In this document: positions 37,579 to 64,000 of the stretch, in pieces | Layout of the letters: the number at the start of each line of letters is the position of its first letter | Numbering within the stretch: position 1 is the stretch's first letter | Assembly: GCA_963809875.1 (NCBI GenBank) | Contig: CAWELC010000005.1 | Location: 152,836-216,835 of the forward strand | Direction: 5' to 3' | DNA from: an uncultured delta proteobacterium | GTDB taxonomy: Bacteria; Desulfobacterota; Zymogenia; Zymogenales; Zymogenaceae | Length of the DNA stretch: 64,000 bases | The notes under the pieces: generated by a model | Seen by the model: the letters and a program-made list of their open reading frames with translations, nothing else | The model's database searches: none | Told to the model about the DNA's origin: nothing | Made by a program: the position numbers and the translations under genes

Positions 37579-37777
37579 GAGTAACCTTTGTGAGAACAGA
37601 ACTAATGCCCTTGCCCTAAATTACGACATTTATACGCAATAGCACTATAGGATGAGAGATATTACGGAATGACCGCTGCCACATGAGTAGCCAATGATAG
37701 GATAAAGCACCCTTCTAAGCTCAATATCTATGCTTCTAAACCGTTCCAGGGACTTTCCCTTACTATGCCGCACTTCA

Positions 37778-39442: not shown

Positions 39443-40320
39443 TAGTGAGAAATCCTTTTTACAGTATTACGCAGTTGAAGTGTCAATACTTCTATAGATG
39501 TCATGAAGAAACGCAATAGAATCCCGCAGGCGACAAGAATATGAGTGAATGGATTCCTCCGAAGATACTTTCTATAGTACAACCACATGCCCCGGTGTCT
39601 TTCATAATTGATTTTTATTGTCGGTACGGTCCTGCTTATGCCGATTTCATGTGAGACTGATACTTCGGGATGATATACTACTCGATATCCGGCTCTTGCC
39701 AATCGATTGCAGAAATCCACGTCTTCATGGAAAAGAAAGTAATCTTCGCAAAAACCCCCAATTGCGTCAAAGACATCCTTTCTTACTATCATGGCGCATC
39801 CCGAGACCCAATCTACCTGCTGTGATTTATCGTCGCTCATTATAGGATTAAGATATTCTCTGGAAAACCTGTTGCTCGGAACCAGCCTGGTGAGAATAGA
39901 GCCTCGATTGAATAGAGCAGTTCTTAAGGTTGGAAAATTTCGAGCAGAAAGCTGTCTTGTTCCATCGCTCGGATTCAGGATCTTAGGACCCAGAACGCCG
40001 ACATGATCCGTCGAGAGATAGCCAGGAATATTTCTAAGGTCATGCGTTAGTATATACGAATCCGGATTCAGCAAGAAGATTATGTCTTTGCTCGCATGTT
40101 TTATTCCGAAATTAGCACCGGAGCCATAACCCATATTCTTTTCTAATTCTATGAGTCTGACGTTGTTAAACCTGCTCCTTATTAATTGTTTTGTCATGTC
40201 CCGGGAATTATTGTCCACGACGATAATCTCATACGGGATTCCTTTGATCGACGAAATATGTTCAAGGCACGCCGTGATGGTTCTCTCGCTGTTGTGAGTT
40301 ATTATTACAAAGCTTATCAT
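39442..40320 (-). CDS. GT2 family glycosyltransferase
   Basis: 292 aa. SFVIITHN, IVVDNNSRD, a DxD-like motif and a C-terminal hydrophobic tail. Confidence 0.75.
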   Translation of the reverse strand: MISFVIITHNSERTITACLEHISSIKGIPYEIIVVDNNSRDMTKQLIRSRFNNVRLIELEKNMGYGSGANFGIKHASKDIIFLLNPDSYILTHDLRNIPGYLSTDHVGVLGPKILNPSDGTRQLSARNFPTLRTALFNRGSILTRLVPSNRFSREYLNPIMSDDKSQQVDWVSGCAMIVRKDVFDAIGGFCEDYFLFHEDVDFCNRLARAGYRVVYHPEVSVSHEIGISRTVPTIKINYERHRGMWLYYRKYLRRNPFTHILVACGILLRFFMTSIEVLTLQLRNTVKRISH

Positions 40321-41312
40321 CGCGCACCACCATTTGGAAAAAGTTTTGCCCTTATTTTTCCAAGAAACCAGCCGTCTGCTATTAAAGATCTAACATATCG
40401 ATTTGTGACCTTCCTTTTTTCCTGGATAACACGTCTCTTCTTTACGGTACCAATAAAGCGGATTATAAACGAAAACTTCGCACTGAAAAAGGAAATCAAT
40501 TCCCCTTGCATCGTGAAATATAGGAATGCTGATATGTTGTAAATAACATGCATCGGCAAGTGAGAAACCAAGAGGCTCAGCGGCATGTTCTTGAAAAAAA
40601 CATATTCCAGATTCCTTTGTCCGTAGTAACTGAAAACCCGGTTAATGTCCTTAATTGTTCCACTCGTCTTGTGGTATGCGATTGCTTTCGGACAATAAAT
40701 GCATTTATAACCCGCCAGCTGAGCACGAAAGCTTAGATCCACGTCCTCACACATAATGAAGAAATCTTCATCAAACAGCCCGATTTCTTGCAGCATCTCC
40801 CGACGATATACCACGGCCGCGGCGCACGCGCCGAAGACGTATTCGAAGTCGTTGTAGGAGTCTATCCTTTGCCCAAGTCCGCGTTTTGCGTTGACCCCCC
40901 CTCTCGTATAGAGATCTCCGGCTGTATCAATGGCATCCCTTCGATAGAAATTGACTATTTTGGAAGCGCAGAAACCGGCGTCCGGATAGAGCTTGAGACA
41001 TTCAAGAGACTCTTTCAGCCAGTCCTCATGTGCGACCGCGTCGTTGTTGAGGAGTGCTACAAAGTCTCCCGCACCCGATCTGATTCCAATATTGTTGGCA
41101 CCGGTAAAACCACGGTTTTCCTTCAAAGGTATTATTTCTGTGTCCCCGTACCTACTGGAAACATACTCTACAGACCCGTCATCAGACCCATTGTCTACAA
41201 GAACAATTCTTTTGTCCCGGTGGCTTTGACCGTATACTGAATCCAGGCAATCAGACAAGAAATGCTTTCCATTCCAATTTACGATTACCACGTCTACTTG
41301 ACTGTCTTTCAT
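40317..41312 (-). CDS. GT2 family glycosyltransferase (rhamnosyltransferase-like)
   Basis: 331 aa. VVIVNWNG and VLVDNGSDDGS motifs. It is the first gene of the minus-strand glycan cluster and overlaps the next gene by 4 nt. Confidence 0.75.
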   Translation of the reverse strand: MKDSQVDVVIVNWNGKHFLSDCLDSVYGQSHRDKRIVLVDNGSDDGSVEYVSSRYGDTEIIPLKENRGFTGANNIGIRSGAGDFVALLNNDAVAHEDWLKESLECLKLYPDAGFCASKIVNFYRRDAIDTAGDLYTRGGVNAKRGLGQRIDSYNDFEYVFGACAAAVVYRREMLQEIGLFDEDFFIMCEDVDLSFRAQLAGYKCIYCPKAIAYHKTSGTIKDINRVFSYYGQRNLEYVFFKNMPLSLLVSHLPMHVIYNISAFLYFTMQGELISFFSAKFSFIIRFIGTVKKRRVIQEKRKVTNRYVRSLIADGWFLGKIRAKLFPNGGAR

Positions 41313-42206: not shown

Positions 42207-43298
42207 ATGTACATCGAAGAATTAATCAGGGCGCGCAATGAAATCGCCGAGATGGAAGCCTTAGAGGCATCCATCCTGGAGGCGATACCTCACGCCGTCA
42301 TCGGGTTAATGGACAGAAGGATTATTTTTGTCAATCAGGGGGTCACGGCTGTGTTCGGCTGGACATCCGATGAACTGATCGGCAGGAATACCCGTCTTTT
42401 GTACCGGACAGAAAAGGACTATGAAAGGATCGCCGGCAAACTCTATTCCGTTCTGGAAAAGCAGCCCATTACCAGCATGGAGTTCCCCTGTGTACGGAAA
42501 GACGGTACGGAAATAGAGTGCATGATCAACGCTGCGCGAATCGGCGAAAAATTAAAAGAAAAACGAGTGGTTATTACCTATGAGGATATTACGGACCGGA
42601 AACGGGCAGTACAAGAACTTGAACTGTCAAGGCAGCAGTTGCGCAAATTATCGGCGCACCTTGAATCAATACGGGAAAAGGAAAGAACCCGTATAGCACG
42701 TGAGTTGCACGATGAGTTAGGGCAGCTTCTGACGGCAATGAATACGGACATCATCCTGCTGAAAAACAAGATCCCGGCCGAACAGACGGTGCTGTCGGAC
42801 AGAGTTCATAGCCTTTCCTCCCTCGTTGATCTGACGATGAAGACTGTCAAGCAGATTTACATGGGGTTGCGTCCGGGCATGCTCGATCATCTCGGACTGA
42901 CAGCGGCCATCGCCTGGCAGGCCGAGGAATTTTCCAGACGCACCGGCATCGCCTGCAAAGTATCCTTAAGCCCGGAAGATATGGTCATCGATCCGGATTT
43001 GACGACGACCGTATTTCGCATTTTTCAAGAAACCTTGACGAACGTGCAGCGTCACGCCGAGGCCACGAGAGTAACTGTCCGCCTGAGGGCTACTAACGAC
43101 CGGCTCGAGTTTGTTGTCAAGGATAACGGCAAGGGCATCACGCATCATCAGATGAAAAAACCCGATTCGTTCGGTTTGCTGGGGATCAAAGAACGGGTCT
43201 ATCACTGGGGAGGGAAGGAGGCCATCGTCGGGAAAAGCGGGCGGGGCACCACCATAACGATCAGCATCCCCTTGCCAAAGACGGGAGAAAGGTCATGA
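42207..43298 (+). CDS. Sensor histidine kinase, cytoplasmic PAS + HisKA_3 + HATPase_c (NarL/LuxR-partner type)
   Basis: 363 aa with no TM segments. PAS domain, then an H-box ERTRIARELHDELGQ and N/G boxes (QETLTNVQRHA, LGIKER). Confidence 0.8.
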   Translation: MYIEELIRARNEIAEMEALEASILEAIPHAVIGLMDRRIIFVNQGVTAVFGWTSDELIGRNTRLLYRTEKDYERIAGKLYSVLEKQPITSMEFPCVRKDGTEIECMINAARIGEKLKEKRVVITYEDITDRKRAVQELELSRQQLRKLSAHLESIREKERTRIARELHDELGQLLTAMNTDIILLKNKIPAEQTVLSDRVHSLSSLVDLTMKTVKQIYMGLRPGMLDHLGLTAAIAWQAEEFSRRTGIACKVSLSPEDMVIDPDLTTTVFRIFQETLTNVQRHAEATRVTVRLRATNDRLEFVVKDNGKGITHHQMKKPDSFGLLGIKERVYHWGGKEAIVGKSGRGTTITISIPLPKTGERS

Positions 43299-43939
43299 CA
43301 GGGAAAAAGATCAGAATCCTTATTGCCGACGATCACCCCATTGTCCGCGCAGGTTTCAAGCAGGTTCTTTCAGAGACGCCTGATCTCGTTGTCGAGGATG
43401 AAGCGGGAAACGGCCAGGAAGTCCTCGCGTATATCAAAAAGAAACAATACGATGTTGTACTGCTGGATATTTCAATGCCCGGGAAGAACGGCCTGGAAAT
43501 CCTGCGAGAATTGAAAGCCGACTATCCAAAACTCCCCGTTCTAATTCTCAGCATCTACCCCGAAGAGCAATACGCCATCCGGGCATTACGGGCCGGGGCA
43601 GCCGGCTATCTGACAAAGGCAAGCGCACCCCATGAATTGATTTCGGCTATTCGGAAGATTTCCGCAGGCGCACGCTACATCAGCGCGTCCCTCGGCGAAA
43701 AGCTGGCCGACTATCTGGACACCGACATGACGAAATTGCCCCACGAAACCCTGTCCGATCGCGAGCATCAAGTCATGCAGCTTATAGCATCCGGAAAGAC
43801 CGTCTCGGAAATTGCCGAGATTCTGCATCTGAGCGTCAAAACCATCAGCACCTACCGCTCCCATATTCTGGAAAAGATGAAGATGAAAAGCAATGCCGAA
43901 ATTATCCTGTACGCAGTACAGAACAAACTCGTAGGGTAA
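43295..43939 (+). CDS. Response regulator, NarL/FixJ family (REC + LuxR-type HTH)
   Basis: RILIADDH, then a D in LLDISMPG, then a C-terminal LuxR HTH (LSDREHQVMQLIASGKTVSEIAEILHLSVKTI). ATGA overlap with the kinase gene. Confidence 0.85.
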   Translation: MTGKKIRILIADDHPIVRAGFKQVLSETPDLVVEDEAGNGQEVLAYIKKKQYDVVLLDISMPGKNGLEILRELKADYPKLPVLILSIYPEEQYAIRALRAGAAGYLTKASAPHELISAIRKISAGARYISASLGEKLADYLDTDMTKLPHETLSDREHQVMQLIASGKTVSEIAEILHLSVKTISTYRSHILEKMKMKSNAEIILYAVQNKLVG

Positions 43940-46241: not shown

Positions 46242-48921
<2,680 letters not shown>

Positions 48922-52045: not shown

Positions 52046-52240
52046 ATCACATACCTCCCTCATCGGATAGAGATTTAGCAGATTATATCGCCCAGGTCTT
52101 CGGAATGCAAGGGTGTCGACTATATTGGTTGTAAAAGGTCGATGATGGTGATACAAACAGACACATTCTCTCACTATTTTCAGAACCATTCCCGAAAATC
52201 ATTGTCATTAACGGTATCCATGTCCTATGGGAGGCCCGTC

Positions 52241-54514
52241 ATGAAAAAGGCAGTCGTCTTTCTCTGTATCCTGATAGCGTCTTATTCCTTAACGGCGTTT
52301 GCCCAGCCGGAGCAGAAGCTTCCCGATCTGCCGGGTGGAGCCGTCACCATCCCCTGGTCGGACTTCAAAGAGCTCATAAAGGGGTTGATGGCCCCACCCC
52401 CGGTTCCTCCGACCCCGCCGGAGCCGCCCGCCGACTATTCGGTGAGCTCGGCGTCCTACGTTGGGAGGATCGAGGGTGAGAGCGCCGTCTTTTCCGCTTC
52501 GTTTGCGGTGACGATCCTCGCCGAAAAGAAATGGGTCGAGGTACCGCTGGTCTCCGATGAGACGGCAGTCTCCAACGTCATGATGGACGGCGTCCCGGTC
52601 ACCCTCGCGGCGCGGGACGGCTCCTATGTTGTCTTCAGCGACAAGCCGGGAAGGCACATCGTAACGCTGAACTTCTACGTCACCGCGGATTCCGGGTCCG
52701 GAAAGAACGCGGTCGATATCCCTCTGCCGCAGGTCCCGGCGTCAACCCTCACGTTTACGGTTCCCAAGCCGGGGCTTGACATCCAAATCACGCCCGCCCA
52801 CTTCAAGAAGGTCACGCCTTCGGGAGGGGGTACCACACTCGAGGCGGTGCTGCCGATAACCGACCGGGCAGTCATCTCCTGGAGTCCTGCTGTGCGCGAG
52901 GAAGCCTCCGGAACGCTCAGGGTCCAGGCCCAGGTGAACACCATCATCTCGGTGGGAGAGGGGATCATGAAAGGGGTCACCACCGTTACGTATGACATCT
53001 CACACGGGACGCTCTCGAGCTTTTCGATCACGATGCCCGCAGACATCGAAATCATCGATGTCTCGGGGGACGCGGTCCGCGACTGGAAGGTCGTCCCGAA
53101 CGGCGGCACCTCGACGATCCTCGTTACCGCCGGGTTTCCCGCCTCCGGCACGACTAGCATCGTGCTCCTGTATGAGCGCAATATGGGCGGGACGACCGCC
53201 GATATCGAGGTGCCCCAGATCGAGGTGAACAACGTAACCCGGGAGATCGGCTATCTCGCGGTGACCGCGTCCACCAAGGTGGGGGTGGAGGAGATCTCGT
53301 CCAAGAACCTGGCGGGCCTGGACAGCACCGAACTGCCCGCCGAGATGGTCTCGGCATCGGAAAACCCGATCCTCTTTTCCTATAAGTACCTCAAGCACCC
53401 CTATGCCCTCAAGCTTGCGGTGGTGACCTACCAGGATATCCCAAGCCTCACCACGGTGGTCACGAAGGCCGACTTTTCATCCCTGCTCACGGTGCGGGGC
53501 GACCTGGTAACCCGGGCGGTCTTCGAGGTCAAGAATAACGTGAAGCAGTTCATGAGGCTTTCCCTGCCCAAGAAGTCGACCCTCTGGAGCGTCTACGTCT
53601 CCGATCGGCCGGTCAAGCCGTCGATGGACAAGGATGGCGCAATCCTCATCCCGCTGGACCGCTCCACCAGAACCGATAGCTCACTCACCTCGTTTACCGT
53701 CGAGCTCGTCTACATCACGGAGACCAAACCCCTCGGCGCGCTCTTCGGCCGCCGGGAATTTGTCGCCCCCGTTATAGACATCCAGACCGACGCCCAGGCG
53801 TGGACCATCTATCTCCCCGAGCGGTTCGCCTACCGGAGTGTTGGAAAAGACATGGAGAAGGCCGCGCCGACCCCCGTGGTAAGTGGGGGGGAGATGGAGA
53901 GCAACGCCCCGGCCACGGCTCCCACCGAGGAGATGACGGTGTCCGACGAGATGTATCGTGATAAGAAGGAGGCGCCTAAAACCCAGATCTACACCGAAAA
54001 GAATATCTACGCGGAGGGACTCTTGTCGATCGGAGGCGGCGCAGGGATGAAAGGTGTGCTGCCGGTGAAACTCGATATCCCCTTTTCCGGCCGTGCGATG
54101 GGTTTTACCAAGGCGATCGTCAGGCCCGGCGAGCTATCGACCGTTGCCATCAGGTATGAGGGCAGGGGGCTCTCGAGCCTGTTCCTTTATCTCGGGGTCG
54201 TCCTGTGTGCCCTCCTGTTTGTCTGCATTATTATCTCGGTACGACAGTCGGTTGGGGCGCGGCACATCGTCATCGAGCCAGGGCTTGCAGCGCTTTTCGT
54301 CTCGTCACTGATTGCGATCATCCTGATATCCGTTTTCCTGATTATGGACGTCGCTGCGATATGGTGGGGGCTTTTCATCGCCATTATCGTCGGCGGCTCC
54401 CTTTTCGTGAGGGACCTGATCGTAAGACTCAAGGAGTCGGCCGAGCGGTCGAAAGCCCAAGGCGTCAGGCAGGAGAAAGAGCGGACGCGGTCGGAAAAGA
54501 AGCATGAGAAATAA
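52241..54514 (+). CDS. Large secreted / C-terminally membrane-anchored protein of unknown function (paralog A)
   Basis: Start MKKAVVFLCILIASYSLTAFA has a signal peptide and a GGGAGG RBS. Motif TIPWSDFKEL, then a Pro-rich PPPVPPTPPEPP stretch. About 620 aa are predicted extracytoplasmic and beta-rich. The C-terminus has 3 hydrophobic helices and a KR-rich tail. Confidence 0.55.
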   Translation: MKKAVVFLCILIASYSLTAFAQPEQKLPDLPGGAVTIPWSDFKELIKGLMAPPPVPPTPPEPPADYSVSSASYVGRIEGESAVFSASFAVTILAEKKWVEVPLVSDETAVSNVMMDGVPVTLAARDGSYVVFSDKPGRHIVTLNFYVTADSGSGKNAVDIPLPQVPASTLTFTVPKPGLDIQITPAHFKKVTPSGGGTTLEAVLPITDRAVISWSPAVREEASGTLRVQAQVNTIISVGEGIMKGVTTVTYDISHGTLSSFSITMPADIEIIDVSGDAVRDWKVVPNGGTSTILVTAGFPASGTTSIVLLYERNMGGTTADIEVPQIEVNNVTREIGYLAVTASTKVGVEEISSKNLAGLDSTELPAEMVSASENPILFSYKYLKHPYALKLAVVTYQDIPSLTTVVTKADFSSLLTVRGDLVTRAVFEVKNNVKQFMRLSLPKKSTLWSVYVSDRPVKPSMDKDGAILIPLDRSTRTDSSLTSFTVELVYITETKPLGALFGRREFVAPVIDIQTDAQAWTIYLPERFAYRSVGKDMEKAAPTPVVSGGEMESNAPATAPTEEMTVSDEMYRDKKEAPKTQIYTEKNIYAEGLLSIGGGAGMKGVLPVKLDIPFSGRAMGFTKAIVRPGELSTVAIRYEGRGLSSLFLYLGVVLCALLFVCIIISVRQSVGARHIVIEPGLAALFVSSLIAIILISVFLIMDVAAIWWGLFIAIIVGGSLFVRDLIVRLKESAERSKAQGVRQEKERTRSEKKHEK

Positions 54515-56498
54515 GATTCTCGCGGCGCTCTGCGTCCTCTTCCTGCTGCCGTTGGCCGCCGGTCAGGCCCGCGCCGAGAAGGGGACACTGCCGCCGATGC
54601 CTGATACGAAGATCACCGTGCCCTGGGACGACTTCGTGAGGATGATGGAGGGGTTAGCGTCGCATCCGGCCCCTCCCGTTCCTCCCCCGCCGACCGACCT
54701 GGCCGTCGGGCGGGCGTCCTACACCATGCGCATTGTGCCGGGCCGGCTCGAGACCGCGGTGACCCTTGATGTGAGGAGTTACGGGGACGGCTGGCACGAG
54801 ATCTTCGTCGCCGGACGGGATACCCCTCTGATCTCCCTTACCGTCGACGGCATTGATGCGGTGACCCTGGTGAAAGACGACGGGGTATGGGCGGCCCTGC
54901 CGGGAGAAGGAAAAAGGACGATCCGGGCACTCCTCGTCACGGAGGCCCCCGATACCCCCGGACCCCACACGGTGGCGATCCCGGGTCCGACCGCGGCGGC
55001 CAGGGAAATCGACCTGAGCTACCCGCGCAATTACACGGACGTGGGGGTCGGCGGGGTGGTCACCGCGTCGATGCCGGGGAGGCTCTCGGCGGTCTTGGCG
55101 GGCGGCGGCAGCATCGAGGTCTCCTATACCGTGGCCGCCGTGGAGAAGATAGAGACCACCGGGAAGAAGGCCACGGGCCCTCCCGTGGTGACCGCGCAGC
55201 TCTTCACGGCCATGGATATCGAAGAAGAGGCGATCCTCCTTTCGGTCCGCATCGACTATGAGGTGAAGAACGGCCCCGTACGGTCGTTTCGGGTGAGTCT
55301 TCCCCAGGGCTTTGACCTCCTGGACGTAAAGGGCGACGGTATCGCCTCCTGGGAGACATCTCAGGACCGCACGGGGCTTACCGCTGCGATCGGTTACGAT
55401 GTTTCCGGCCCCTACTCCCTTTTTCTCTCCTTTGAGAAGGCAATGAGCGACGAGCTTGGCTCGATCGAATTTCCCCGGGTTGTCCCCGCGGGCGCGGAGC
55501 GGTCGACGGGATACGTGACGGTCGTCTCGGGAGGGGGCTTTGAAGTCACCGAGCTCAAGTCAAAGCTCCTCACGCCCCGGGATCCTACCGAGCTCCCGGA
55601 AGGGGTCTTTTCGCTCTCGGCGCTGCCGCCTATACTGGCCTACCGCTTCACCGACCCCCGTTACAGCCTCACGGTGGGGATTCGAAAAGGGGAGGCCCTG
55701 TCGGCGCTTTCGGGCTTTGCCGATTCGGCAAACTCCGTTATCCTCGTGACGGCGGACGGCAAGATGGTCGTCAGGACCAACTACTTCGTGCGAAACAGGA
55801 ACCTCCAGTTCCTCACGATCGTCCTGCCGCCGGAGTCCGTCCTCTGGTCGGCGACGACAAACGGCGTCCCGACAAAGCCGTCCACGGACAAGAAGGGAGT
55901 CGTCCTGGTCCCCCTTCCGATGGGCTCGGGCGGCGCCGACGGGCCGTCCGTGGTCTCCGTCGTTATATTTGTGCCGACACCCACTCTGGGGTGGGCCGGC
56001 CGGCTCTTTCTGCCGCTGCCGCGGCTTGAAATTCCGACCGGCCAGGTAATGGCGACCTTTTACCTCCCGGAGGGTATGAGCTATCTTTCCTTCGGCGGCG
56101 ACATGGAGCAGATCAAATATTTCACGGAGCTGCTCTCACCCGGCTCATCCGAAAGCTTCGTCGAGGAGAACCTGCGCCTGCGTAAATCCGTCTACGAGCG
56201 GCAGGAAGACCTTGAAAACGTCATAAACGAACAGCAGCAGATGCCCGATAAGGGGGGCGCGGGGCTGCCGCCGGCGCCCGAGGGATTCGACCTGCCGCTT
56301 TCGGGGAAGGTCTATCGGTTCGTGAAACTGATAACGATGGGCGAGGAGACGAGCGTAGTCGCCACCTACGTCGATCTGCGCCTCCTCGTCGCAGGCATCC
56401 TGCTCCTGCTGATCGTGGTTGGAGGAGGGGCTCTTCGATACAGGCGGAAGTTACGGAGTATAGTGACCGGCCGAACCGGGGACAGGGATATCCGCTAG
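54504..56498 (+). CDS. Large secreted / C-terminally membrane-anchored protein of unknown function (paralog B)
   Basis: Signal peptide MRNKILAALCVLFLLPLAAGQARA. It has the same ITVPWDDF plus PAPPVPPPP motif order and the same C-terminal TM anchor as paralog A. It overlaps A's stop by 11 nt. Confidence 0.55.
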   Translation: MRNKILAALCVLFLLPLAAGQARAEKGTLPPMPDTKITVPWDDFVRMMEGLASHPAPPVPPPPTDLAVGRASYTMRIVPGRLETAVTLDVRSYGDGWHEIFVAGRDTPLISLTVDGIDAVTLVKDDGVWAALPGEGKRTIRALLVTEAPDTPGPHTVAIPGPTAAAREIDLSYPRNYTDVGVGGVVTASMPGRLSAVLAGGGSIEVSYTVAAVEKIETTGKKATGPPVVTAQLFTAMDIEEEAILLSVRIDYEVKNGPVRSFRVSLPQGFDLLDVKGDGIASWETSQDRTGLTAAIGYDVSGPYSLFLSFEKAMSDELGSIEFPRVVPAGAERSTGYVTVVSGGGFEVTELKSKLLTPRDPTELPEGVFSLSALPPILAYRFTDPRYSLTVGIRKGEALSALSGFADSANSVILVTADGKMVVRTNYFVRNRNLQFLTIVLPPESVLWSATTNGVPTKPSTDKKGVVLVPLPMGSGGADGPSVVSVVIFVPTPTLGWAGRLFLPLPRLEIPTGQVMATFYLPEGMSYLSFGGDMEQIKYFTELLSPGSSESFVEENLRLRKSVYERQEDLENVINEQQQMPDKGGAGLPPAPEGFDLPLSGKVYRFVKLITMGEETSVVATYVDLRLLVAGILLLLIVVGGGALRYRRKLRSIVTGRTGDRDIR

Positions 56499-56656: not shown

Positions 56657-57412
56657 ATGGAGCTCACCATCCTCGGATCGGGAACCATCGTCGTGTCCCT
56701 GACGCGCTGGTCGCCCGCGTACCTCCTGAGGGCATGCGGCAAGACCATCCTTATCGACCTCGGGCCGGGCGCGCTGAGGCGTATGGTGGAGGCCGGCTCG
56801 GGCATCCTCGATATCGACGCGATCTGTCTTTCCCACTTTCATCCCGACCACGTCGCCGACTTCGTGCCGCTCGTTTTCGCCTCCAAATACGCCGTGGGAA
56901 GCTGCCGCGCCCGGGATCTGACCGTTATCGCTCCCCCGGGGTTCGGTGAATTTTACGCGGGTCTCATCGAGGTCTTCGGCGACTGGATCGTACCCGAGGC
57001 TTACCGGCTCGATATCCGGGAGGCCGACGGCTCGATTGTTGACCTCGGGGCCTGTTGTGTAACGACCGTTTCGGTCAACCACAGTCCCGAGAGTATCGCC
57101 TATCGTTTTGAGGGTGAAGGCGCTTCGCTCGTCTACTCGGGAGACACCGACTGGTCCGACGGCCTCGTCACCCTGGCGCGGGGGGCGGACCTCCTTCTCC
57201 TCGAGTGCTCGTTTCCGGACGACATGAAGGTGCCCGGCCATCTGACTCCCTCGGAGGCGGGAAGGCTCGCCCGTGATGCACGCGTGTCGCACCTGGTCCT
57301 GACGCACCTCTACCCCCCGGTGGAAAACGTGGATATCGTATCGATCGCGGGGGCCTCGTTTACGGGCAGGATCACCGTGGCCGAGGACCTGATGGTTATA
57401 CCGGTGGGCTAA
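56657..57412 (+). CDS. MBL-fold metallo-hydrolase (RNase Z/beta-lactamase superfamily)
   Basis: HFHPDH metal-binding motif and downstream His/Asp ligands. 251 aa. Confidence 0.75.
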   Translation: MELTILGSGTIVVSLTRWSPAYLLRACGKTILIDLGPGALRRMVEAGSGILDIDAICLSHFHPDHVADFVPLVFASKYAVGSCRARDLTVIAPPGFGEFYAGLIEVFGDWIVPEAYRLDIREADGSIVDLGACCVTTVSVNHSPESIAYRFEGEGASLVYSGDTDWSDGLVTLARGADLLLLECSFPDDMKVPGHLTPSEAGRLARDARVSHLVLTHLYPPVENVDIVSIAGASFTGRITVAEDLMVIPVG

Positions 57413-57550: not shown

Positions 57551-59134
57551 CTAATCCGCCTCGGGGGGGTCTTTGGGAGAATATTTTTCCACCAGCGCGT
57601 ACTTCGTCACCTTGCCGACGCTGTTACGGGGAAGCGTCGTCGTGAAGATGATCCGACCCGGCACCTCGTTCGGCGAGAGCCGCTCCCGACACCAGTCGAC
57701 CAATACCCGGTCGCTCGTGTCCTTCCTCGGATCCCTTACCACTACCGCCACCACCCGCTCTCCCGATGGGTAGTCGGGCAAACCGATCACCGCGGCGTCC
57801 ATAACGCCCTCATGGGACGTGAGCACCTCTTCAATGCCCGGAGCGAAGACCGTTCCTCCCGCCGTCACGATCATGTCTTCTCTCCTGCCCAGGAAATAGA
57901 GACACTCGTCTTCGTCCAGGCGGCCCCAGTCACCGGTGTAGAACCAGCCGTCACGATAGGCCGCCCTGGTCCTTTCCTCGTTCTTAAAATATCCCGGGGC
58001 GGCGGTGAGCGCCCGACAGATGATCTGGCCGATCTGACCGGTCGGTACGTCGCGGCCCTTCTCGTCGACGACGCGCAGCTCGGTCCCGAAGCAGCGGGTC
58101 CCCACGGAGGCGGGGTTGGCGCGCTTCTGATCCGGTCCCGCGTGCGCGATGATACCGGCCTCCTGCAGGGCGTAAAACTCGTAGATGTTGGGGCAGATTC
58201 GCTCCCTCACCTCGCGCTGCAGGGCGACGGGAAAGGGGCTGGCCGAAAACGCGATTCCTCTCAGCGACGAGAGATCGTATCGGTCCAGCTGCGGGATCTT
58301 CAGCAGGACCGATGCGACGATAGGAGTCCAGAACGTTATGGTGACGCGCTCCTCTTGGATGATCTTGAGGATTCCCGAGAGGTCGGTAACGTCAGGCTGA
58401 AACAGGACGTTTCGCGCACCGACCAGAAAGCCGGCGCCGTACCACCCCAGGCCCGCCCTGCCGTAGAGCGGAAAGACGGTCAGAATCACATCGGTGCCCG
58501 TGAGGTCGTGCATCGCCGTGAAAAGGCCCAGCGCATTGAGCCCGTTGCCGTGGGTAAGGGGGAAGACCTTCTGCACGCCGGTCGTGCGGGAGGTAGTGTC
58601 GATGCACTGGATGTCGTCGGAATCTACCTCAATAAAGGGAAGCGTGGCGGGACAGCCCCAAATCAATTCTTCATAGGGCAGGGCGGTTTCGGCCGTCTGT
58701 TTGCCGATACAGATGAAGGTCTCGATATCGGGCAGCGCCTTTCTGACCTCGGCCGCGGTCGGGGCGTAGATGTCCTCAAACAGAAAGAGCCGGGCACCGA
58801 CGAACCTGAGATATTCGACGATCTGATCGGGGCCGAACCCCCACTGGAGGGGCACGGCGACGGCTCCGATCTTAACGAGGGCGCCGTATATCTCTCCGGC
58901 CTCGGCCCGATTCCTGCACTGAAAGGCGCAGTGGTCGCCCTTTTGTATCCCCAGCGAGAGCAGGGCGTTGGCCAGACGATTCATCCGCTCGTTCACCTCG
59001 CGGAACGAGAAGCGCCGGCCCGTCATCGAGCAGAAGACGGCCTCACGATCCCGATAGCGGGCGGCCGCGGTCTTGGGGAGGTTTGACTGGGTTACCTGCG
59101 ACGCCCGAAAGAGTGATCGATCGATCCGGCTCAT
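57551..59134 (-). CDS. AMP-dependent synthetase/ligase (acyl-CoA synthetase / adenylate-forming enzyme)
   Basis: Adenylation-superfamily motifs (TSRTTGVQK..; YGRAG..; TGD.GR.DEDG; C-terminal lysine motif PRNSVGKV). Start taken at the ATG at 59134, which overlaps the peptidase stop (ATGA). Confidence 0.75.
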   Translation of the reverse strand: MSRIDRSLFRASQVTQSNLPKTAAARYRDREAVFCSMTGRRFSFREVNERMNRLANALLSLGIQKGDHCAFQCRNRAEAGEIYGALVKIGAVAVPLQWGFGPDQIVEYLRFVGARLFLFEDIYAPTAAEVRKALPDIETFICIGKQTAETALPYEELIWGCPATLPFIEVDSDDIQCIDTTSRTTGVQKVFPLTHGNGLNALGLFTAMHDLTGTDVILTVFPLYGRAGLGWYGAGFLVGARNVLFQPDVTDLSGILKIIQEERVTITFWTPIVASVLLKIPQLDRYDLSSLRGIAFSASPFPVALQREVRERICPNIYEFYALQEAGIIAHAGPDQKRANPASVGTRCFGTELRVVDEKGRDVPTGQIGQIICRALTAAPGYFKNEERTRAAYRDGWFYTGDWGRLDEDECLYFLGRREDMIVTAGGTVFAPGIEEVLTSHEGVMDAAVIGLPDYPSGERVVAVVVRDPRKDTSDRVLVDWCRERLSPNEVPGRIIFTTTLPRNSVGKVTKYALVEKYSPKDPPEAD

Positions 59135-59577
59135 GACCTCATAGTCTCCTGACCGAACAATGAGAGAGAACGTGCGCGTATCCACCGCGCGGCCTTCCCC
59201 AGCCTTCCCTTGACGATTCCTGCGGTCAGGTTTCTCCGCGAAAGGGCGGCCGTCACGCCCCCAAAGCGGGGCCGGACGAGACGGCGGTCAGAACGGGAAA
59301 CCATGATGACCCTGAGGATGCCCCCGGGAGGGACGGCGGTGGGTGGGTCCGGGTAGGTGAGATTGTCTCCCTTGGTGACGATGACTGGCGGACTCACGCT
59401 CCGGTCGACGCCGATTATCCTGTGGACGACCAGCTCCTTCTTTCGGGGGACGCAGACGATATCGCCGATTGCGCAGTCGGCGGGCCGGACGGTATCAAGG
59501 ATCAGGGTATCGCCCGGGCGGAGTGCCGGGTACATGCTGTATCCCTGAAAAGCGATGCGTCGGTAGTCCATCGTCAT
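59131..59577 (-). CDS. S26-family signal-peptidase-I-like peptidase (short, no obvious TM anchor)
   Basis: Start trimmed to MTMDYRR. The Ser box is GYSMYPAL. The Lys/Arg box is GDIVCVPRKKELVVHRIIGV, matching the SPase I/TraF arrangement. Confidence 0.55.
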   Translation of the reverse strand: MTMDYRRIAFQGYSMYPALRPGDTLILDTVRPADCAIGDIVCVPRKKELVVHRIIGVDRSVSPPVIVTKGDNLTYPDPPTAVPPGGILRVIMVSRSDRRLVRPRFGGVTAALSRRNLTAGIVKGRLGKAARWIRARSLSLFGQETMRS

Positions 59578-59614
59578 ACGTTCATGTGCGGCAAACGGGA
59601 CGGGCGCGGCCGAA

Positions 59615-59869
59615 TTAGGGCGCCTTCCCGTAGTTGCAGCGCACCGCGGTGGCGCCGTCGCGGCAGTTTTGCGGCGTGGCCGAAGGGCCCTGTGCGCACG
59701 CAACCGTCGCCTGGGCTCCGCCGGAGCACTGGCTTGTCGCCTGGGCGCCCGTGGTGCACTGTCCGGTGGCCTGTCCTCCCGTAAGGCATTTCGACTGGCC
59801 CACCGCCTGGGTGTAGTCCACCTGCAGATCGACTATTTTCGGGGGCGCATACGGCTTTTTTGTTTTCAT
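59615..59869 (-). CDS. Candidate RiPP precursor peptide A (84 aa): leader MKTKKPYAPPKIVDLQVDYTQAVG + 6-Cys core with decapeptide repeats
   Basis: ATG at 59869. The core is QSKCLTGGQATGQCTTGAQATSQCSGGAQATVACAQGPSATPQNCRDGATAVRCNYGKAP. Cys spacing is 10/10/10/11/9. Each Cys is preceded by an Ala-Thr dipeptide 4-5 residues upstream. Confidence 0.6.
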   Translation of the reverse strand: MKTKKPYAPPKIVDLQVDYTQAVGQSKCLTGGQATGQCTTGAQATSQCSGGAQATVACAQGPSATPQNCRDGATAVRCNYGKAP

Positions 59870-59981
59870 CAGGAAATCACCAAAAAATTTATTACGGACG
59901 TAAAGGTATAAAAGACAATTGTCACATGATCCGCGGTCGCCGTCCCGGTCCTGTGTGAGCGGGACACCGACGCATCCTCCA

Positions 59982-60206
59982 TTATCCGGATAGTATTGAG
60001 TGGGGTGCGGCGCCATGAATGCATGTCGACGACGTCGCCTTATGACCCATGCTGCATTGATTGTTCGCGCTGTTTCCGCGTGAGCACCGGGCCGCCGCGC
60101 CCTGGCCGGTCGCGCACCGCGACGCGCCCACCGCCTGGGTATAGTCGACCTGCAAATCGATGATCTGAGGCGGCTCATACGGTTTTGTGGGTTTCTTATC
60201 CTTCAT
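59982..60206 (-). CDS. Candidate RiPP precursor peptide B (74 aa): near-identical leader, divergent 4-Cys core
   Basis: ATG at 60206 with a GGGAGA RBS. The leader is MKDKKPTKPYEPPQIIDLQVDYTQAVG. The core is ASRCATGQGAAARCSRGNSANNQCSMGHKATSSTCIHGAAPHSILSG (Cys spacing 10/10/11). Confidence 0.55.
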   Translation of the reverse strand: MKDKKPTKPYEPPQIIDLQVDYTQAVGASRCATGQGAAARCSRGNSANNQCSMGHKATSSTCIHGAAPHSILSG

Positions 60207-61157
60207 GAGGCATCTCCCTGAAGAAAGGGGTGGGCTTGAAATCCCTGGTAAATACCAGCGTCCACGAGGGTTGGTTTTGACACAGCTGCCCTGCGATGCC
60301 GAACGCCCTGAGCGCCGCGTTGCGGCACATGTACCGAAAGAAATGGATGTGATTGGATAACAACATCGCCATGGCCCGGCCCGGCGACAGATCGGCGATC
60401 CGGTCTTCGTTGCCCTTTTCGAGGAAGAGGATGCGCCTGAGAGGAACCGGGCCCGCGACTTCCGCCCCGGGGCGATCTGTGAAAAAGGGGTCGGGAAGAG
60501 AGAGAACGTCCCGCCGGTTTGCGAACACCAGGACCCGTCGTCGGAAAGCACCGCCCCCGGATCCGCCGCGGCTATTGTGCTCTTACCTGCGCCCGAGCTT
60601 CCGACGCAGAGATAGCCCGCGCCGTCCAGGACCAGCGACGCGGCGTGGAGCATCAGTGCGCCGAAATCCGGCGCGCAGACCGCCAGCAGTCCCTGCAGCA
60701 CAGGCGTCAGCGGTGACTCACCGTCCGAATCTTCCTCGACCCTCACGAGGGCCTCCGCCTGTCGGAGCCGGTGATCCACCACCACGAGAAAACAGGGGTG
60801 TGGAATGACCGAGACATCCCCCGAATCGAGATCAGCCAGAAGCGGCAGAGACGCCCCCCCGTCCTTAGCCTGCCGTTTCCTTCCCTGGTTTCCGAACCAT
60901 ATCCTGTTAAAAGGGAACCTCTGTTCGATCGTTTGCGCGATGCGACGGGTGTGTGCAAGGGCTTCAGGTGACAGTATCTCATCCCAGGACTCCCCAACGG
61001 CCCGCCTGATCGACAGATCAATGCCGACTCGATCCCGCCGATGCGTTAAGTGGGACGTATGACCTTTCAACCCACGGCCGGCGTCATTCATCAGCTTACC
61101 CGCAGGATCGTTGACGAAGGTGACCTGTACCGATACCCCTCCGACCGTGACGATCAT
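60196..61157 (-). CDS. P-loop protein resembling HPr-kinase C-terminal domain-like kinases, apparent frameshift near 60525
   Basis: Walker A VGSSGAGKST. The C-terminal part continues in ORF 60196..60528 (VFANRRDVLSLPDPFF...) in another frame. ATGA overlap with the upstream rSAM gene, and its stop overlaps the precursor B start. Confidence 0.45.
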
Positions 61158-62242
61158 CTTTCCACCATCCTGCCGGGCGGGAAAAGACCCTTTTCATAGG
61201 CTTCCTCGCATACCCAGTGCGGGGCGCTCAGGCTTCCCGACAATACGTACGCGTCAGCCCGACATGAACCAAGACAGATTCCTGCCATGAAGCATCGGCC
61301 GCATATTCCCTCCATTCGACGGGGTACAATCTCTCGAAGTCGCCCGAGAACGTGACTGCTTTTCCACACCTGGGCCAGGTCGTCGGTGCGGATGTTGCCC
61401 ATAGTAAGCGACCGCTCTTCCCGTCCGATACCGCAGATCGAGATATCACCGCCGGCCAGAATGCCGATAATGTTCAGTATATAGCACTGGGCGTTTCTTC
61501 CGTCAAAGAGGTGCGAGATCGGTTTGAGGGCCGAAGGGACGGTAAAGAATGTATCTATGCCGTAGCTCGCGGCCAGCTCCCCTTCCACCCACGCACAGAG
61601 GGCCAGCAGCTCTTCAACCGGCAGGGTCTGCCCCTGATCCTTCAAGCTCCCGCCCCTCCCAACGGGGGTGACGGGGTTGATCTTCACGGAACGCGCCCCG
61701 AGCCGTTGGGCCATCTCGACCAATCCCTCGATGTCCGCGGCGTTGTCACGAACGAGGCTCATGATCACCTGAACGGCGATACCCTCTGCCGCCAGAAACT
61801 CAACGCCAGCGGCCGCCCTATTCAGGGCCCCATCTACCCCCCGGAAGCTATCATGGAACGACGCCCGGTGACTGTCAATGCTCACGCTTACGGAACGGAT
61901 GCCATGGTCTTTCAGGAAGGCGGCGGCCTTCCGGTCGATCAGTGTCCCGTTGGTCTCGATCGATGCAGAAAGACCGCTGACGTCCAGCAGCCTGACAATG
62001 TCGAAAACGTCTTCGTTCAGAAACGGCTCCCCCCCGGTGAGCTTGACGCGGGAAAGTCCCAGGGGCCGGGCCGCATCGATGATTTTTTTGACGTCTGCCG
62101 TCGTCAGACGATCACGTACGGCTTCCTGTTGGGGAGTGAAGCTGGGGGATATCCAACAGTGGGCGCAGCGGAGATTACATCCTCCCGAAAGGTACAGGTA
62201 GGCGTGGATCAGAGGATATGCGGGCGTCCTATCGGCTCGCAT
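61154..62242 (-). CDS. Radical SAM / SPASM-domain peptide-modifying enzyme 1
   Basis: Start MRADR at 62242 (GAGGAGGA RBS). CNLRCAHCW (CxxxCxxC) radical SAM motif. C-terminal Cys-rich auxiliary-cluster region (CGIG..., CGRCFMAGICLGSC). Confidence 0.8.
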   Translation of the reverse strand: MRADRTPAYPLIHAYLYLSGGCNLRCAHCWISPSFTPQQEAVRDRLTTADVKKIIDAARPLGLSRVKLTGGEPFLNEDVFDIVRLLDVSGLSASIETNGTLIDRKAAAFLKDHGIRSVSVSIDSHRASFHDSFRGVDGALNRAAAGVEFLAAEGIAVQVIMSLVRDNAADIEGLVEMAQRLGARSVKINPVTPVGRGGSLKDQGQTLPVEELLALCAWVEGELAASYGIDTFFTVPSALKPISHLFDGRNAQCYILNIIGILAGGDISICGIGREERSLTMGNIRTDDLAQVWKSSHVLGRLREIVPRRMEGICGRCFMAGICLGSCRADAYVLSGSLSAPHWVCEEAYEKGLFPPGRMVER

Positions 62243-63428
62243 ATGAATCCTCCTCTTCACGGAGCCTGAGGCAACAGGACGGGTCCCGGGCGAGCGTCGT
62301 GCCGGAGGCGGCCAGCGCCGACGCGGCGCACCCCCCCGTGCAATAGGGGGCATACCGGCAGTCGGTGCAGGTAGGAAGGCTCGCGACCGGGGTAACGAAA
62401 CGCGCCCGAAATTCCTGAAACAGAGGCGATTTCCTCCATATCTCGTCAAGGCCGGTATCCAGGACGTTGCCTGCCACAAGCTCGGTGAGGCGGTCGCACG
62501 GAGTCGCAAACCCATCGGGTCGGATCGCGCATTCCGTGCGCAGCGCGCCGCATCCCGAAAGGCAGTTTATGTCCGCGTCGGCGGGGTTCTCTTTTTCGGC
62601 ACATACCGAGCGAATAGTCGCAAAGATGTCTTCTATTTCGAGGAAGGTGCCGGAGATCGTGGGATTGGCCTCTTTCAGTTCCCTGAGAGACGCCGTGACC
62701 TCGCGTCGTTCTTCGGCGGAGAGACCGAGCTCGCCCCGGTTATCATGGCCCCGACCGAGCGTGATGAGCTCATTGAATTTCACGCCCCGAATGCCGAGCT
62801 CCCCGGCCAGTCTCACCACCTCTTCCAGCCGCCGAAAGTTCAGGCGAGTCACCGTGCAGTAGGCCGAGACCCGCCCGATCTGCCGGACCAGATGTCCCAG
62901 TCCCTCCTCCATCGCCCGGAATGCCCCGGGTCCCCGCAGGGCGTCGTGGACTTGTTCCGTGCCCCCGTCCAGGCTCACCATGACATCGGAGAGCTTTTCC
63001 CCGTATCTTCGGAGACGCCCGGCCGCCCCCGCGTCGATGAGCACGGCGTTCGTGTTAAGAGAGAAGCGGATCGGCTTTGAGAAAAGATGGTCGAGGATGG
63101 TAAAGATATCCTGCCGGGCGAACGGCTCTCCCCCGCTGATCTTGACCCGAAATACTTTAAGATCGGCGATATGGTCGATGAACGAAAGCCATTGGGAGGT
63201 GGTGAGGTCCGGCCCGTAGGAGAGGCCGTCTCCGTAGACGGCACAGTGGCGGCAGGCCAGGTTGCAGCGGGAAGTGATGGAGATAAAGAGTGACAGCGGC
63301 GCCCGCGGTATCCTCGGGGGGACGGGGTATATCTCTCCGGCTGCGGTGGCTGCTTTCTGCCTGCTCACGATAGTCTCTCCCTGTTGTTGGATCCGGGCAG
63401 AAGTCCCCGTCCGGAAGGCCTTACGCAA
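62229..63428 (-). CDS. Radical SAM / SPASM-domain peptide-modifying enzyme 2
   Basis: CNLACRHC radical SAM motif. C-terminal SPASM-like Cys cluster (CLSGCGALRTEC..PCD..CTDCRYAPYCTGGC). It overlaps both neighbours, which suggests translational coupling. Confidence 0.8.
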   Translation of the reverse strand: MRKAFRTGTSARIQQQGETIVSRQKAATAAGEIYPVPPRIPRAPLSLFISITSRCNLACRHCAVYGDGLSYGPDLTTSQWLSFIDHIADLKVFRVKISGGEPFARQDIFTILDHLFSKPIRFSLNTNAVLIDAGAAGRLRRYGEKLSDVMVSLDGGTEQVHDALRGPGAFRAMEEGLGHLVRQIGRVSAYCTVTRLNFRRLEEVVRLAGELGIRGVKFNELITLGRGHDNRGELGLSAEERREVTASLRELKEANPTISGTFLEIEDIFATIRSVCAEKENPADADINCLSGCGALRTECAIRPDGFATPCDRLTELVAGNVLDTGLDEIWRKSPLFQEFRARFVTPVASLPTCTDCRYAPYCTGGCAASALAASGTTLARDPSCCLRLREEEDSYASR

Positions 63429-63930
63429 CGATCAGCCCGCGATCCACCAGCTCCTTGACGAAGGACTCCACGTCCCGGCCGACCTGCTGTGCGTCAACAT
63501 CCGAAAAATGCGCAGCCACCGCGTGGATGATATCGGCAAGGCTCTTTTTCCCGTCGATCTGTCGCATCACCATGAGCCCGGTCTCGTTGATCGCCGAAAG
63601 CTTGTCGCCAACGGGGTCGAATATAAAGGCGCCGTCGTCCTCCTCGCGGATGACGGTCTCCCTCTTGATTTTGGGCGTGAACGAACGATCAGGCGCCATG
63701 GTGAAGACCCCCTCTCTTATGAGCTTGCGACAAATCCTCTTCACGTCCCCGGCTACGGCCCTGTCTTTCTCACCGAATTCCCGGGCAATCCCCCGCACAA
63801 CCGCGTTGAGGTTTCGTGTGCCGTCGGTAAGTCGAATGACCGCCGCGGCGGTATGGTTGAGGAGATAGACGTTCCGGTCGCCGGTGTCAAAAAGGACAAG
63901 CTCGTCCTGGTCGAATTCGGATGCGACCAT
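63421..63930 (-). CDS. PqqD-family peptide chaperone (RiPP recognition element), tandem double domain
   Basis: 169 aa. Two consecutive ~80-aa units each match the PqqD pattern (..YLLNHTAAAVIRLTDG.RNLNAVV.. and ..SAINETGLMVMRQIDGKKSLADII..). Confidence 0.65.
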   Translation of the reverse strand: MVASEFDQDELVLFDTGDRNVYLLNHTAAAVIRLTDGTRNLNAVVRGIAREFGEKDRAVAGDVKRICRKLIREGVFTMAPDRSFTPKIKRETVIREEDDGAFIFDPVGDKLSAINETGLMVMRQIDGKKSLADIIHAVAAHFSDVDAQQVGRDVESFVKELVDRGLIVA

Positions 63931-64000
63931 CCGGCGATTGAGCAGACAGACGCTGCTCTCCGAAAGGGCCGGCCGCCGCTCGGAAAGACGCCGCAGGACA

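Follow-up and report, generated by a model that had tools for sequence, protein, structure and literature searches.

Organization of the locus

The last part of a 64,000-nucleotide stretch of DNA from an uncultured delta proteobacterium of the Zymogenaceae (assembly GCA_963809875.1, contig CAWELC010000005.1, positions 152,836 to 216,835; hereafter the window) carries eight co-directional genes on the minus strand, which run from position 57551 to the end of the window (Table 1). An initial annotation, made from the letters and their open reading frames (ORFs), had described these genes as an operon for a peptide that is made by the ribosome and modified after translation (RiPP). All eight are present, and the description of a RiPP-type leader-peptide/radical S-adenosylmethionine (rSAM) maturation operon holds: genuine precursors are encoded together with a tandem PqqD protein, two SPASM-type rSAM enzymes, a P-loop protein, a peptidase, and an adenylating enzyme (AMP-ligase). 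We propose that these genes, which resemble but diverge from members of the SynChlorMet (Scm) cassette, act as a leader-peptide maturation operon, a reading to which we assign a probability of about 0.7.

Overlaps between most neighboring genes had been reported, and four of the seven junctions do overlap when read from the sequence: ScmE/ScmF by 14 nt, ScmC/precursor A by 11 nt, and both ScmF/ScmC and peptidase stop/AMP-ligase start through an ATGA. The other three are gaps of 112 nt (precursor A to precursor B), about 40 nt (precursor B to the peptidase gene), and about 52 nt (PqqD gene to ScmE). The last value assumes that ScmE starts at GTG 63368; judged from its context this is the most likely start, because it is preceded by a GGAGAG Shine-Dalgarno sequence and gives a protein of 379 residues, the length of the homologue in a related locus (L001). 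With this start, there would therefore be no overlap with the PqqD gene. The ScmE ORF remains open further upstream, to TTG 63428. For the AMP-ligase, the most likely start is ATG 59134 (527 residues), not GTG 59185, and an AGGGAG lies upstream of the ATG of precursor A.

The 112-nt spacer between the precursor genes folded no better than shuffled sequences (z = −0.6), and an Rfam scan of positions 57000–64000 gave zero matches. Scanning for promoters and terminators yielded no signal above that of shuffles. PADLOC returned generic viperin-type rSAM matches only, with no defence system assigned.

Table 1. Features of the cassette and of its surroundings in the window (lengths in residues)
Feature	Position	Strand	Evidence
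Double-PqqD protein, ScmD-like C-terminal domain	63421..64000, start beyond window	−	Pfam PqqD x2
ScmE-like rSAM/SPASM protein, 379 from GTG 63368	62229..63368	−	TIGR04250, Pfam
ScmF-like rSAM/SPASM protein, 362	61154..62242	−	TIGR04251, Pfam
ScmC-like P-loop protein (PEPCK/HprK fold), frameshifted, 320 when repaired	60196..61157	−	two-frame alignment
C4G4 run, ScmC frame break	60465..60472	−	sequence and two-frame alignments
Precursor A, 74, 4 units	59982..60206	−	TIGR04252, jackhmmer family
Precursor B, 84, 6 units	59615..59869	−	TIGR04252, jackhmmer family
Small soluble S26B-type peptidase, 146	59131..59571	−	TIGR02228, SEC11 profile match
ANL-family acyl/aryl-adenylating enzyme (AMP-ligase), 527	57551..59134	−	Pfam AMP-binding and AMP-binding_C
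MBL-fold protein, 251	56657..57412	+	
Large paralogous protein, 664	54504..56498	+	
Large paralogous protein, 790	52142..54514	+	
KatG-type peroxidase	46726..48921		
PAS histidine kinase/LuxR-type response regulator pair	42207..43939		
Glycosyltransferase block	30545..41312	−	

Relationship to the SynChlorMet cassette

Searches with Pfam and NCBIfam hidden Markov models, the check suggested in the initial annotation, placed the PqqD, Radical_SAM, SPASM, and AMP-binding domains above threshold. Peptidase S26/S24 and HprK-related models stayed under their cut-offs, and here it is fold and motifs that agree with the predicted identities (see below). The Scm families are the best or sole NCBIfam match for all five core proteins, ScmD, ScmE, ScmF, ScmC, and ScmA (Table 2). 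ScmE and ScmF are assigned to their families reciprocally, and the locus has co-directional PqqD, ScmE, ScmF, and ScmC genes with an adjoining Cys-repeat precursor. The gene order is that of the clade to which the window belongs and of canonical Chlorobium and Syntrophobacterales loci, and at least 80 loci have it in common. Homologues with 76–78% identity carry the JGI name "SynChlorMet cassette radical SAM/SPASM protein ScmF." We hold the identity of the locus as an Scm cassette to be very likely.

Canonical cassettes from two metagenome-assembled genomes, one of Chlorobium (locus L027) and one of the Syntrophobacterales (L072), exceed every NCBIfam cut-off, with scores of 591 and 518 for ScmF, 602 and 570 for ScmE, 130 for ScmD, and 309 for ScmC. 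Because all five scores of the window fall under the equivalog cut-offs, the locus represents a sister subfamily and not a canonical member.

Table 2. NCBIfam scores of the core proteins of the window
Family	Score (bits)	Cut-off (bits)	Remark
TIGR04251 ScmF	346.6	400	next family 169 bits
TIGR04250 ScmE	203.5	400	best match
TIGR04248 ScmD	58.9	100	C-terminal PqqD domain
TIGR04249 ScmC	17.2 as deposited, 33.8 after frameshift repair	125	
TIGR04252 ScmA	13.9 and 13.7 (two precursors)	35	E ~0.05, sole match for each

A survey of ScmF-encoding loci was carried out with phmmer and jackhmmer over all six-frame ORFs. It comprised 80 loci on one-genome-per-species contigs, extended to 83 with close relatives from other collections; many of the 83 lie on short contigs. 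A near-universal architecture was found, in which PqqD, ScmE, ScmF, and ScmC occur with a short ORF of Cys repeats, a small peptidase, and in many cases an NTP_transf_5 protein. PqqD is present in 71 of the 83 loci, ScmC in 64, a precursor in 58, the peptidase in 53, and NTP_transf_5 in at least 39. On a wider scale, 583 of 600 pattern-matching stretches from one-genome-per-species contigs, representing many bacterial phyla and methanogens, encode a relative of ScmF.

The type of system is already catalogued in NCBIfam, Pfam, and JGI names, and the locus rediscovers the SynChlorMet cassette. The initial annotation had taken the S26 peptidase, the HprK-like protein, and the AMP-ligase together as signs of an uncharacterized layout. 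The first two are standard parts, because the canonical L027 and L072 cassettes carry both. The AMP-ligase is indeed unusual and is confined to a small clade, but the layout as a whole is not a new arrangement. In its components and their order (PqqD, two rSAM/SPASM enzymes, P-loop protein, Cys-repeat precursor, and S26B-like peptidase), the window agrees with the Scm cassette. It differs in three clade-specific features, namely the fused double PqqD, the duplicated precursor, and the appended, coupled AMP-ligase; in relatives, the cassette sits after an XrtA/PEP-CTERM-like polysaccharide module. The claim of a complete toolkit was overstated, as an NTP_transf_5 gene is expected past base 64000, outside the window.

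The radical SAM/SPASM enzymes

Both rSAM proteins pass the Pfam thresholds for PF04055 (Radical_SAM) and PF13186 (SPASM), in agreement with the prediction of two SPASM-type enzymes, and each contains a CX3CX2C motif and a complete seven-Cys SPASM motif. The translation of ScmE reads CNLACRHC and CTDCRYAPYCTGGC at these positions. In ScmF, residues C22/C26/C29 and C253/C270/C314/C317/C323/C327/C345 are invariant across 27 homologues; the ScmF of the window is 100% identical to a public protein (P0001). No close solved structure was found for the rSAM enzymes. The nearest ones to the ScmF profile are SkfB (E 2e-26), PqqE, BlsE, CteB, MoaA, SuiB, and anSME, most of which cross-link peptides; two (SkfB and CteB) form thioethers.

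One alternative is that the rSAM proteins are heme, siroheme, or sulfatase-type maturases and that the small ORFs occur beside them by chance. The initial annotation had named a match to such families, or small ORFs that lack homologues and expression and are regularly missing beside the rSAM genes in related genomes, as grounds for abandoning the RiPP assignment. AhbD, NirJ, and related families do appear among the lower-scoring matches, together with PqqE and mycofactocin maturase. They score far below the Scm families, with ScmF at 347 bits against 169 for AhbD and ScmE at 203 bits against 140. The small ORFs belong to a conserved family that adjoins ScmF in 58 of the 83 loci by jackhmmer, across many phyla, and PqqD peptide-binding domains always adjoin. 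Family scores, gene context, and conserved precursors effectively refute the maturase explanation, and its remaining probability is close to negligible.

The enzymes also invite comparison with those of sactipeptides and ranthipeptides (SkfB, AlbA, CteB, PapB), in which leader-guided rSAM/SPASM enzymes act on regularly spaced Cys residues; as noted, the solved structures nearest to the ScmF profile include those of SkfB and CteB. Models of known maturases match the window weakly (AlbA, 84 bits vs a cut-off of 850; PapB, 70 vs 340; StsB, 111–123 vs 625). The Scm system differs from these in having its RiPP recognition element (RRE) as a separate protein and not fused to the enzyme, in the constant pairing of two rSAM enzymes, in a repeat unit (C-x2-G-x2-A) that is unlike known motifs, and in the addition of a P-loop protein and an S26B peptidase. 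The thioether that defines these products, which joins the Cys sulfur to Cα in sactipeptides and to Cβ or Cγ in ranthipeptides, is a prediction for the Scm peptides.

Precursor peptides and their repeat unit

The two short ORFs were correctly recognized at the outset as peptides with a common leader and Cys-periodic cores. The shared leaders of precursors A and B are KPYEPPQIIDLQVDYTQAVG and KPYAPPKIVDLQVDYTQAVG, and the cores contain four and six units of C-x2-G-x2-A/P, respectively. In both, the last unit has Pro at +6 (CIHGAAP... and CNYGKAP).

Repeat statistics were taken from 74 distinct ScmA-like peptides of the surveyed loci, with 316 Cys–Cys intervals. The modal spacing is 10 residues (134 intervals), and 259 of the 316 fall between 9 and 12. 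Within each unit, Gly occupies position +3 in 95% of cases and position +6 is Ala in 61% and Pro in 14%; the other positions are small or polar and variable. The last Cys is followed by a tail of 6–9 residues with Gly at +3 in 68 of the 74 peptides, often with Pro at +6. Because the last Cys nearly always keeps this tail, the pattern is best read downstream of each Cys, which suggests C-x2-G-x2-(A/P) as the functional unit. A leader motif, Y-E-(P/K)-P-x-h-x-x-L, precedes the first core Cys by 18–21 residues, and positions −6 to −2 relative to that Cys are enriched in small residues (A, G). In the window precursors, the sequence ...QAVG is followed by three residues and then the first Cys.

Loci L083 and L003 have a single precursor each, and by sequence precursor B is its orthologue. 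Precursor A is in the ancestral position, overlapping the ScmC stop, and its four-unit core has diverged. Multiple precursors are seen elsewhere in the survey; L042 contains five tandem precursor genes, and several loci carry 2–5. At L001 (GCA_016933535.1, 12045–12248), the sole precursor keeps the leader, has one Cys and zero repeat units, and the AMP-ligase is absent; this cassette may be decaying.

The tandem PqqD protein

Pfam PqqD (PF05402) matches above its gathering score (90.1 bits) in two stretches, and a single-domain profile re-found both domains, at residues 17–99 and 106–192 of the open frame, which bears out the predicted tandem recognition element. Because the frame is open to base 63999 and homologues have 205 residues with a matching N-terminal extension, the gene is truncated at the window edge, and its start would lie about 40 nt beyond.

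The two domains are of different types. The C-terminal one is like the rSAM-adjoining ScmD of all loci, and the N-terminal one (type 1) is like the first gene of loci with two adjacent PqqD genes. The fused form is common to the close relatives of the window, and a duplicated PqqD, fused or adjacent, occurs in roughly 25–30 of 75 PqqD-bearing loci. At 35 bits, the N-terminal domain equals the cut-off of TIGR04353, the PqqD chaperone of the HPr-rel-A system (whose kinase A is TIGR04352), and ScmC weakly matches HprK_rel_A near its P-loop. The HprK_rel_A score is 16.7 against a cut-off of 200, and the HPr-rel-A system is not defined by an rSAM enzyme pair.

In some phyla (loci L007, L008, L011, and L051), the cassette is split into divergent PqqD-ScmF-ScmC-precursor and PqqD-ScmE parts. 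Each rSAM gene there has its own PqqD, which might point to one PqqD per rSAM enzyme; however, both PqqD proteins of L007, L011, and L051 resemble the C-terminal domain of the window protein. A dedication of one PqqD domain to the kinase or nucleotidyltransferase was also considered and dropped, since the type-1 domain showed no significant co-occurrence with NTP_transf_5, with ScmC, or with the peptidase (Fisher p 0.17–0.32, n = 45).

The ScmC P-loop protein and its frameshift

The P-loop kinase-like protein of the initial annotation does have the PEPCK/HprK fold, but its gene is not intact as deposited and contains a 1-nt (−1) frameshift. An intact homologue (P0122) aligns with 62% identity to the annotated frame (residues 1–236) and with 63% identity to a second frame (residues 225–322). 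The switch between frames falls in the run CCCCGGGG at 60465–60472, where one extra G restores ...FSQIAPGAEVAGPVPL... and a protein of 320 residues, the length of the L001 protein. After this repair, the NCBIfam ScmC match spans the frame junction, and its score rises (Table 2). The deposited ORF reads in frame into precursor A and yields a 391-residue fusion (P0121), which is also in the public record.

If the frameshift were genuine, the P-loop protein would be truncated and fused to precursor A, and the cassette would be a decaying, non-functional copy. The deposited assembly and its fusion product fit this explanation, and decay does occur in the clade, given the degenerate single-Cys precursor core and lost ligase of L001. 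The break lies, however, in a C4G4 homopolymer on a 1.04-Mb contig that is compatible with long-read assembly, and 1-nt indels of this kind are a typical error of such assemblies. Both halves retain 62–63% identity to intact homologues, neither frame contains a stop codon, all other cassette genes are intact in the window, and all 20 relatives are unshifted, with 318–330 residues. The indel is most simply an assembly error, and we regard decay of the cassette as improbable.

Read in the upstream ScmC frame, the break site is c_ccg_ggg (60465–60471), which formally fits the −1 slippery pattern X_XXY_YYZ. A −1 slip there would yield exactly the homologue-like 320-residue protein, which formally also offers an escape from decay; the fit has probably arisen by chance from an assembly error in the homopolymer. 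Programmed −1 frameshifting was judged unlikely (about 3%), as none of the 20 homologues is shifted.

Precomputed annotation lists the Pfam family PF27840 "ScmC" (PF27840.1) for P0121 as well as for each of 21 relatives; a scan with the local copy of Pfam produced no match to an ScmC family. The AlphaFold model of P0122 (intact, 63% identical) has a predicted local distance difference test score (pLDDT) of 83 and a predicted template modeling score (pTM) of 0.84. In fold, the protein agrees with the HprK/P type, as it has the C-terminal domain of HprK together with the P-loop and the catalytic Asp. The HprK-related NCBIfam models TIGR04352 (16.7 bits) and TIGR04355 (14.1 bits) match the P-loop region only and stay under their cut-offs of 200 each. 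His173, the P-loop G188-x-S-G-x-G-K-x-T196, and D209-D210 are invariant, and we take these residues to mirror the catalytic set of HprK/P. Together, the fold match and the invariant His, P-loop, and Asp-Asp support ScmC being an active enzyme; whether the activity would be that of a kinase we put at even odds. The C-terminal P-loop domain has 8,659 relatives (50% cluster representatives, E ≤1e-10). A full-length match was found in only about 15 of the best 150 representatives for the ScmC profile, and the N-terminal domain appears to be clade-specific or very divergent.

HprK-homologue kinases phosphorylate lasso-peptide precursors, after which a nucleotidyltransferase glycosylates the phosphate (PMC8498205). 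This pair of enzymes is the best functional precedent for ScmC and NTP_transf_5. In the lasso systems (paeninodin, pseudomycoidin), as here, an HprK-fold P-loop enzyme is found beside a PqqD-type element and a precursor, and an NTP-transferase fold is encoded in the relatives of the window. The lasso nucleotidyltransferase belongs to PF14907. Two differences are apparent: lasso kinases target a C-terminal Ser, and Scm precursors have no conserved terminal Ser; and ScmC, whose activity is a prediction, has an extra N-terminal domain that gives it a PEPCK-like two-domain match.

A soluble S26B-type peptidase

For the peptidase, the best family is TIGR02228, at 51.6 bits against a cut-off of 51.85, and Pfam S24 (16.1 vs 23.3) and S26 (15.2 vs 22.9) are under their gathering scores. 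The peptidases of canonical cassettes pass TIGR02228 with 63.7 bits (L027) and 59.8 bits (L072). In a 23-sequence alignment drawn from 57 cassette-linked homologues, G10, S12, M13, H50, R51, and D69 do not vary, and G36, D37, G68, and D75 hardly do. The profile of the family matches human SEC11C (E 3e-16) and SEC11A (2e-15), with the SM-P, HRV, and GDNN-D motifs aligned. The Ser-His(-Asp) motifs SM-P, HR, and GDN-D are those of the S26B type, and the earlier S26 assignment stands on these motifs and the SEC11 profile, with family scores below cut-off.

The enzyme shares these motifs with the S26B signal peptidases (SEC11A/C, archaeal signal peptidase I, and SipW). It differs from them in its size (about 146 residues), its location inside a peptide-maturation operon, and its N terminus; with no more than 11 residues ahead of the catalytic Ser, it lacks a membrane anchor. 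The cassette thus counts a soluble SEC11-like Ser/His peptidase among its core components. This enzyme is presumably a cytoplasmic leader peptidase and not a Sec signal peptidase, and its role in leader removal is probable. Signal-peptidase-type enzymes prefer small residues at positions −3 and −1. The QAVG sequence of the precursors fits this preference and is the candidate cleavage site.

The AMP-ligase

Pfam AMP-binding (215 bits) and AMP-binding_C (60 bits) both exceed their gathering scores and confirm that the predicted adenylating enzyme is a member of the ANL family. No specific subfamily is reached at cut-off; the best NCBIfam match is PRK06187, with 335 bits against 476. A tight group of about 16 orthologues shares at least 69% identity. 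Those at the same position, after the peptidase gene, are 69–87% identical, and their start codon often overlaps the peptidase stop codon (the window, L003, L083, L084, and L085). Of six close relatives, five carry the ligase.

Two explanations were weighed for this gene. In the first, the ligase takes part in maturation of the peptide. In the second, it stands outside the peptide pathway, as an ordinary acyl-CoA synthetase gene at the 3′ end of the operon or a leftover of the neighboring exopolysaccharide locus, and the true cassette has seven genes. The retained position and overlapping codons speak for involvement, as does the distribution of the roughly 16-member clade, which occurs on contigs matching in size those that hold the ScmF/ScmC homologues of the clade. 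On the other hand, the ligase is absent from the otherwise syntenic L001 and L002, and the locus survey found no link between it and Scm cassettes beyond this clade. Homologues of the next tier (43–49% identity) have acyl-CoA dehydrogenases, enoyl-CoA hydratase, and CoA-transferases as neighbors or are found in unrelated contexts. Its best family and PDB matches are to generic fatty-acyl/aryl-CoA ligases. Relatives of the window also have XrtA/PEP-CTERM-like genes upstream, and exosortase loci are known for the acyl-CoA ligase family TIGR03098, which gives 181 bits here. By its matches, the enzyme would have been recruited from, or would still be, an ordinary acyl-CoA synthetase. We consider the chances that it is a passenger to be evenly balanced; a part in maturation is the more tentative proposal.

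Close relatives and flanking regions

Close relatives of the window, one of them annotated as Candidatus Zymogenaceae, have ScmF proteins 69–78% identical to that of the window, and the region beyond base 64000 was reconstructed from them. NTP_transf_5 is directly upstream in every close relative whose contig extends far enough. The initial annotation had expected further genes past the window edge, possibly for export and immunity; an NTP_transf_5 gene can be anticipated from the relatives, but no exporter or immunity gene was seen in them. In L085 (657–8205), L083 (5769–8197), and L001 (649–8202), an XrtA/PEP-CTERM-like exopolysaccharide module lies directly upstream of the cassette. Its genes are pepcterm_ATPase-like (245 bits), HD-domain, Wza-like, Wzc-like, Wzy_C-like, and sometimes a GT4 glycosyltransferase, followed by NTP_transf_5; all of these family matches are under their own cut-offs. 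In the source genome of the window, the polysaccharide module and NTP_transf_5 would lie beyond 64000.

On the other side of the cassette, the window encodes two large paralogous proteins of 790 and 664 residues, with N-terminal signal-like and C-terminal hydrophobic segments, for which Pfam, NCBIfam, and PADLOC returned zero matches. Their genes are convergent to the cassette, a position kept in L001, L084, and L085. Between them and the cassette is a metallo-β-lactamase (MBL)-fold protein, whose best matches are RNase Z and cyclic-nucleotide-degrading phosphodiesterase (122–125 bits, under cut-offs); copies in relatives are tagged Anti-Pycsar_Apyc1/Lactamase_B. More distant features include a glycosyltransferase block, containing a 1588-residue protein with two GT2 domains and one GT1 domain, a two-component pair, and a peroxidase (Table 1).

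A proposed maturation pathway

From the observed homology, architecture, precursor family, and motifs, we infer the chemical steps of a pathway. Two ScmA-like precursors would be made, and their conserved leader (K-P-Y-E/A-P-P-x-I-x-D-L...) would be bound by the fused double PqqD/RRE protein. The ScmE-like and ScmF-like enzymes would then act on each C-x2-G-x2-A/P unit, four in precursor A and six in precursor B. Most likely, they would link the Cys sulfur to a carbon 3–6 residues downstream and so close a small thioether ring within the unit. The ScmC-like protein would carry out ATP-dependent tailoring, most likely phosphorylation, and would probably partner with NTP_transf_5, encoded just upstream in relatives, in a phosphate-based decoration. 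The cytoplasmic S26B-type peptidase would remove the leader, probably after the A-x-G motif (QAVG) three residues before the first Cys. The AMP-ligase, a clade-specific addition, might acylate the product or might simply be a co-transcribed acyl-CoA synthetase.

Thioether formation on the Cys units is the favored chemistry, at slightly below even odds. Its main competitor is that the rSAM pair installs carbon–carbon cross-links, epimerizes residues, or oxidizes Cys, or that a free-thiol peptide remains inside the cell as a metal-binding or redox cofactor-like molecule. A single type of thioether would not require two different, always paired rSAM enzymes, and two cofactor maturases, PqqE and mycofactocin maturase, are among the second-tier family matches, as is AhbD. 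Strong conservation within a unit is limited to Cys and Gly, and the neighborhoods of the cassette in relatives, lacking exporter and immunity genes, would suit a retained product. Against this, no reactive side chain other than that of Cys is conserved, and its spacing is regular, like that of other multi-thioether peptides; two thioether synthases, SkfB and CteB, are among the nearest solved relatives; and a leader peptidase, typical of released peptides, is a core component. We judge non-thioether chemistry to be rather unlikely and retain the thioether ring as the working proposal.

Several observations weigh against reading the region as an Scm-related maturation operon. All five NCBIfam scores are below the equivalog cut-offs. 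ScmC is frameshifted in this sequence and, if the shift is real, the pathway may be impaired here. The ligase is missing from L001 and has its next-tier homologues in acyl-CoA metabolism or unrelated contexts. A search of the accessible literature, outside which most subscription journals lie, found no experimental paper on any Scm cassette. Finally, no exporter or immunity gene was seen near the cassette in close relatives, and an intracellular, cofactor-like, or envelope-associated role is therefore conceivable.

A more speculative proposal, which we regard as quite improbable, is that this clade has joined the Scm cassette to the upstream XrtA/PEP-CTERM-like module and the downstream acyl-adenylating enzyme. 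The product would be a multiply cross-linked envelope or matrix peptide that is acylated or phospho-glycosylated. If true, rSAM enzymes, a P-loop kinase, a nucleotidyltransferase, and an ANL ligase would together build a lipidated or glycan-linked RiPP and no diffusible antibiotic.

The window itself is a modest addition, a divergent subfamily and not a new kind of system. To the existing catalogue entry the analysis adds a repeat unit, C-x2-G-x2-A/P, with a period of about 10 and often Pro at +6 in the last unit; a leader motif whose distance from the core is fixed; a soluble SEC11-like peptidase as a core part; and the frequent presence of PqqD in two distinct paralogue types. These features make Scm chemistry directly testable. 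Scm is a large and widespread peptide-maturation system, and because the family is large, the class remains a worthwhile target.

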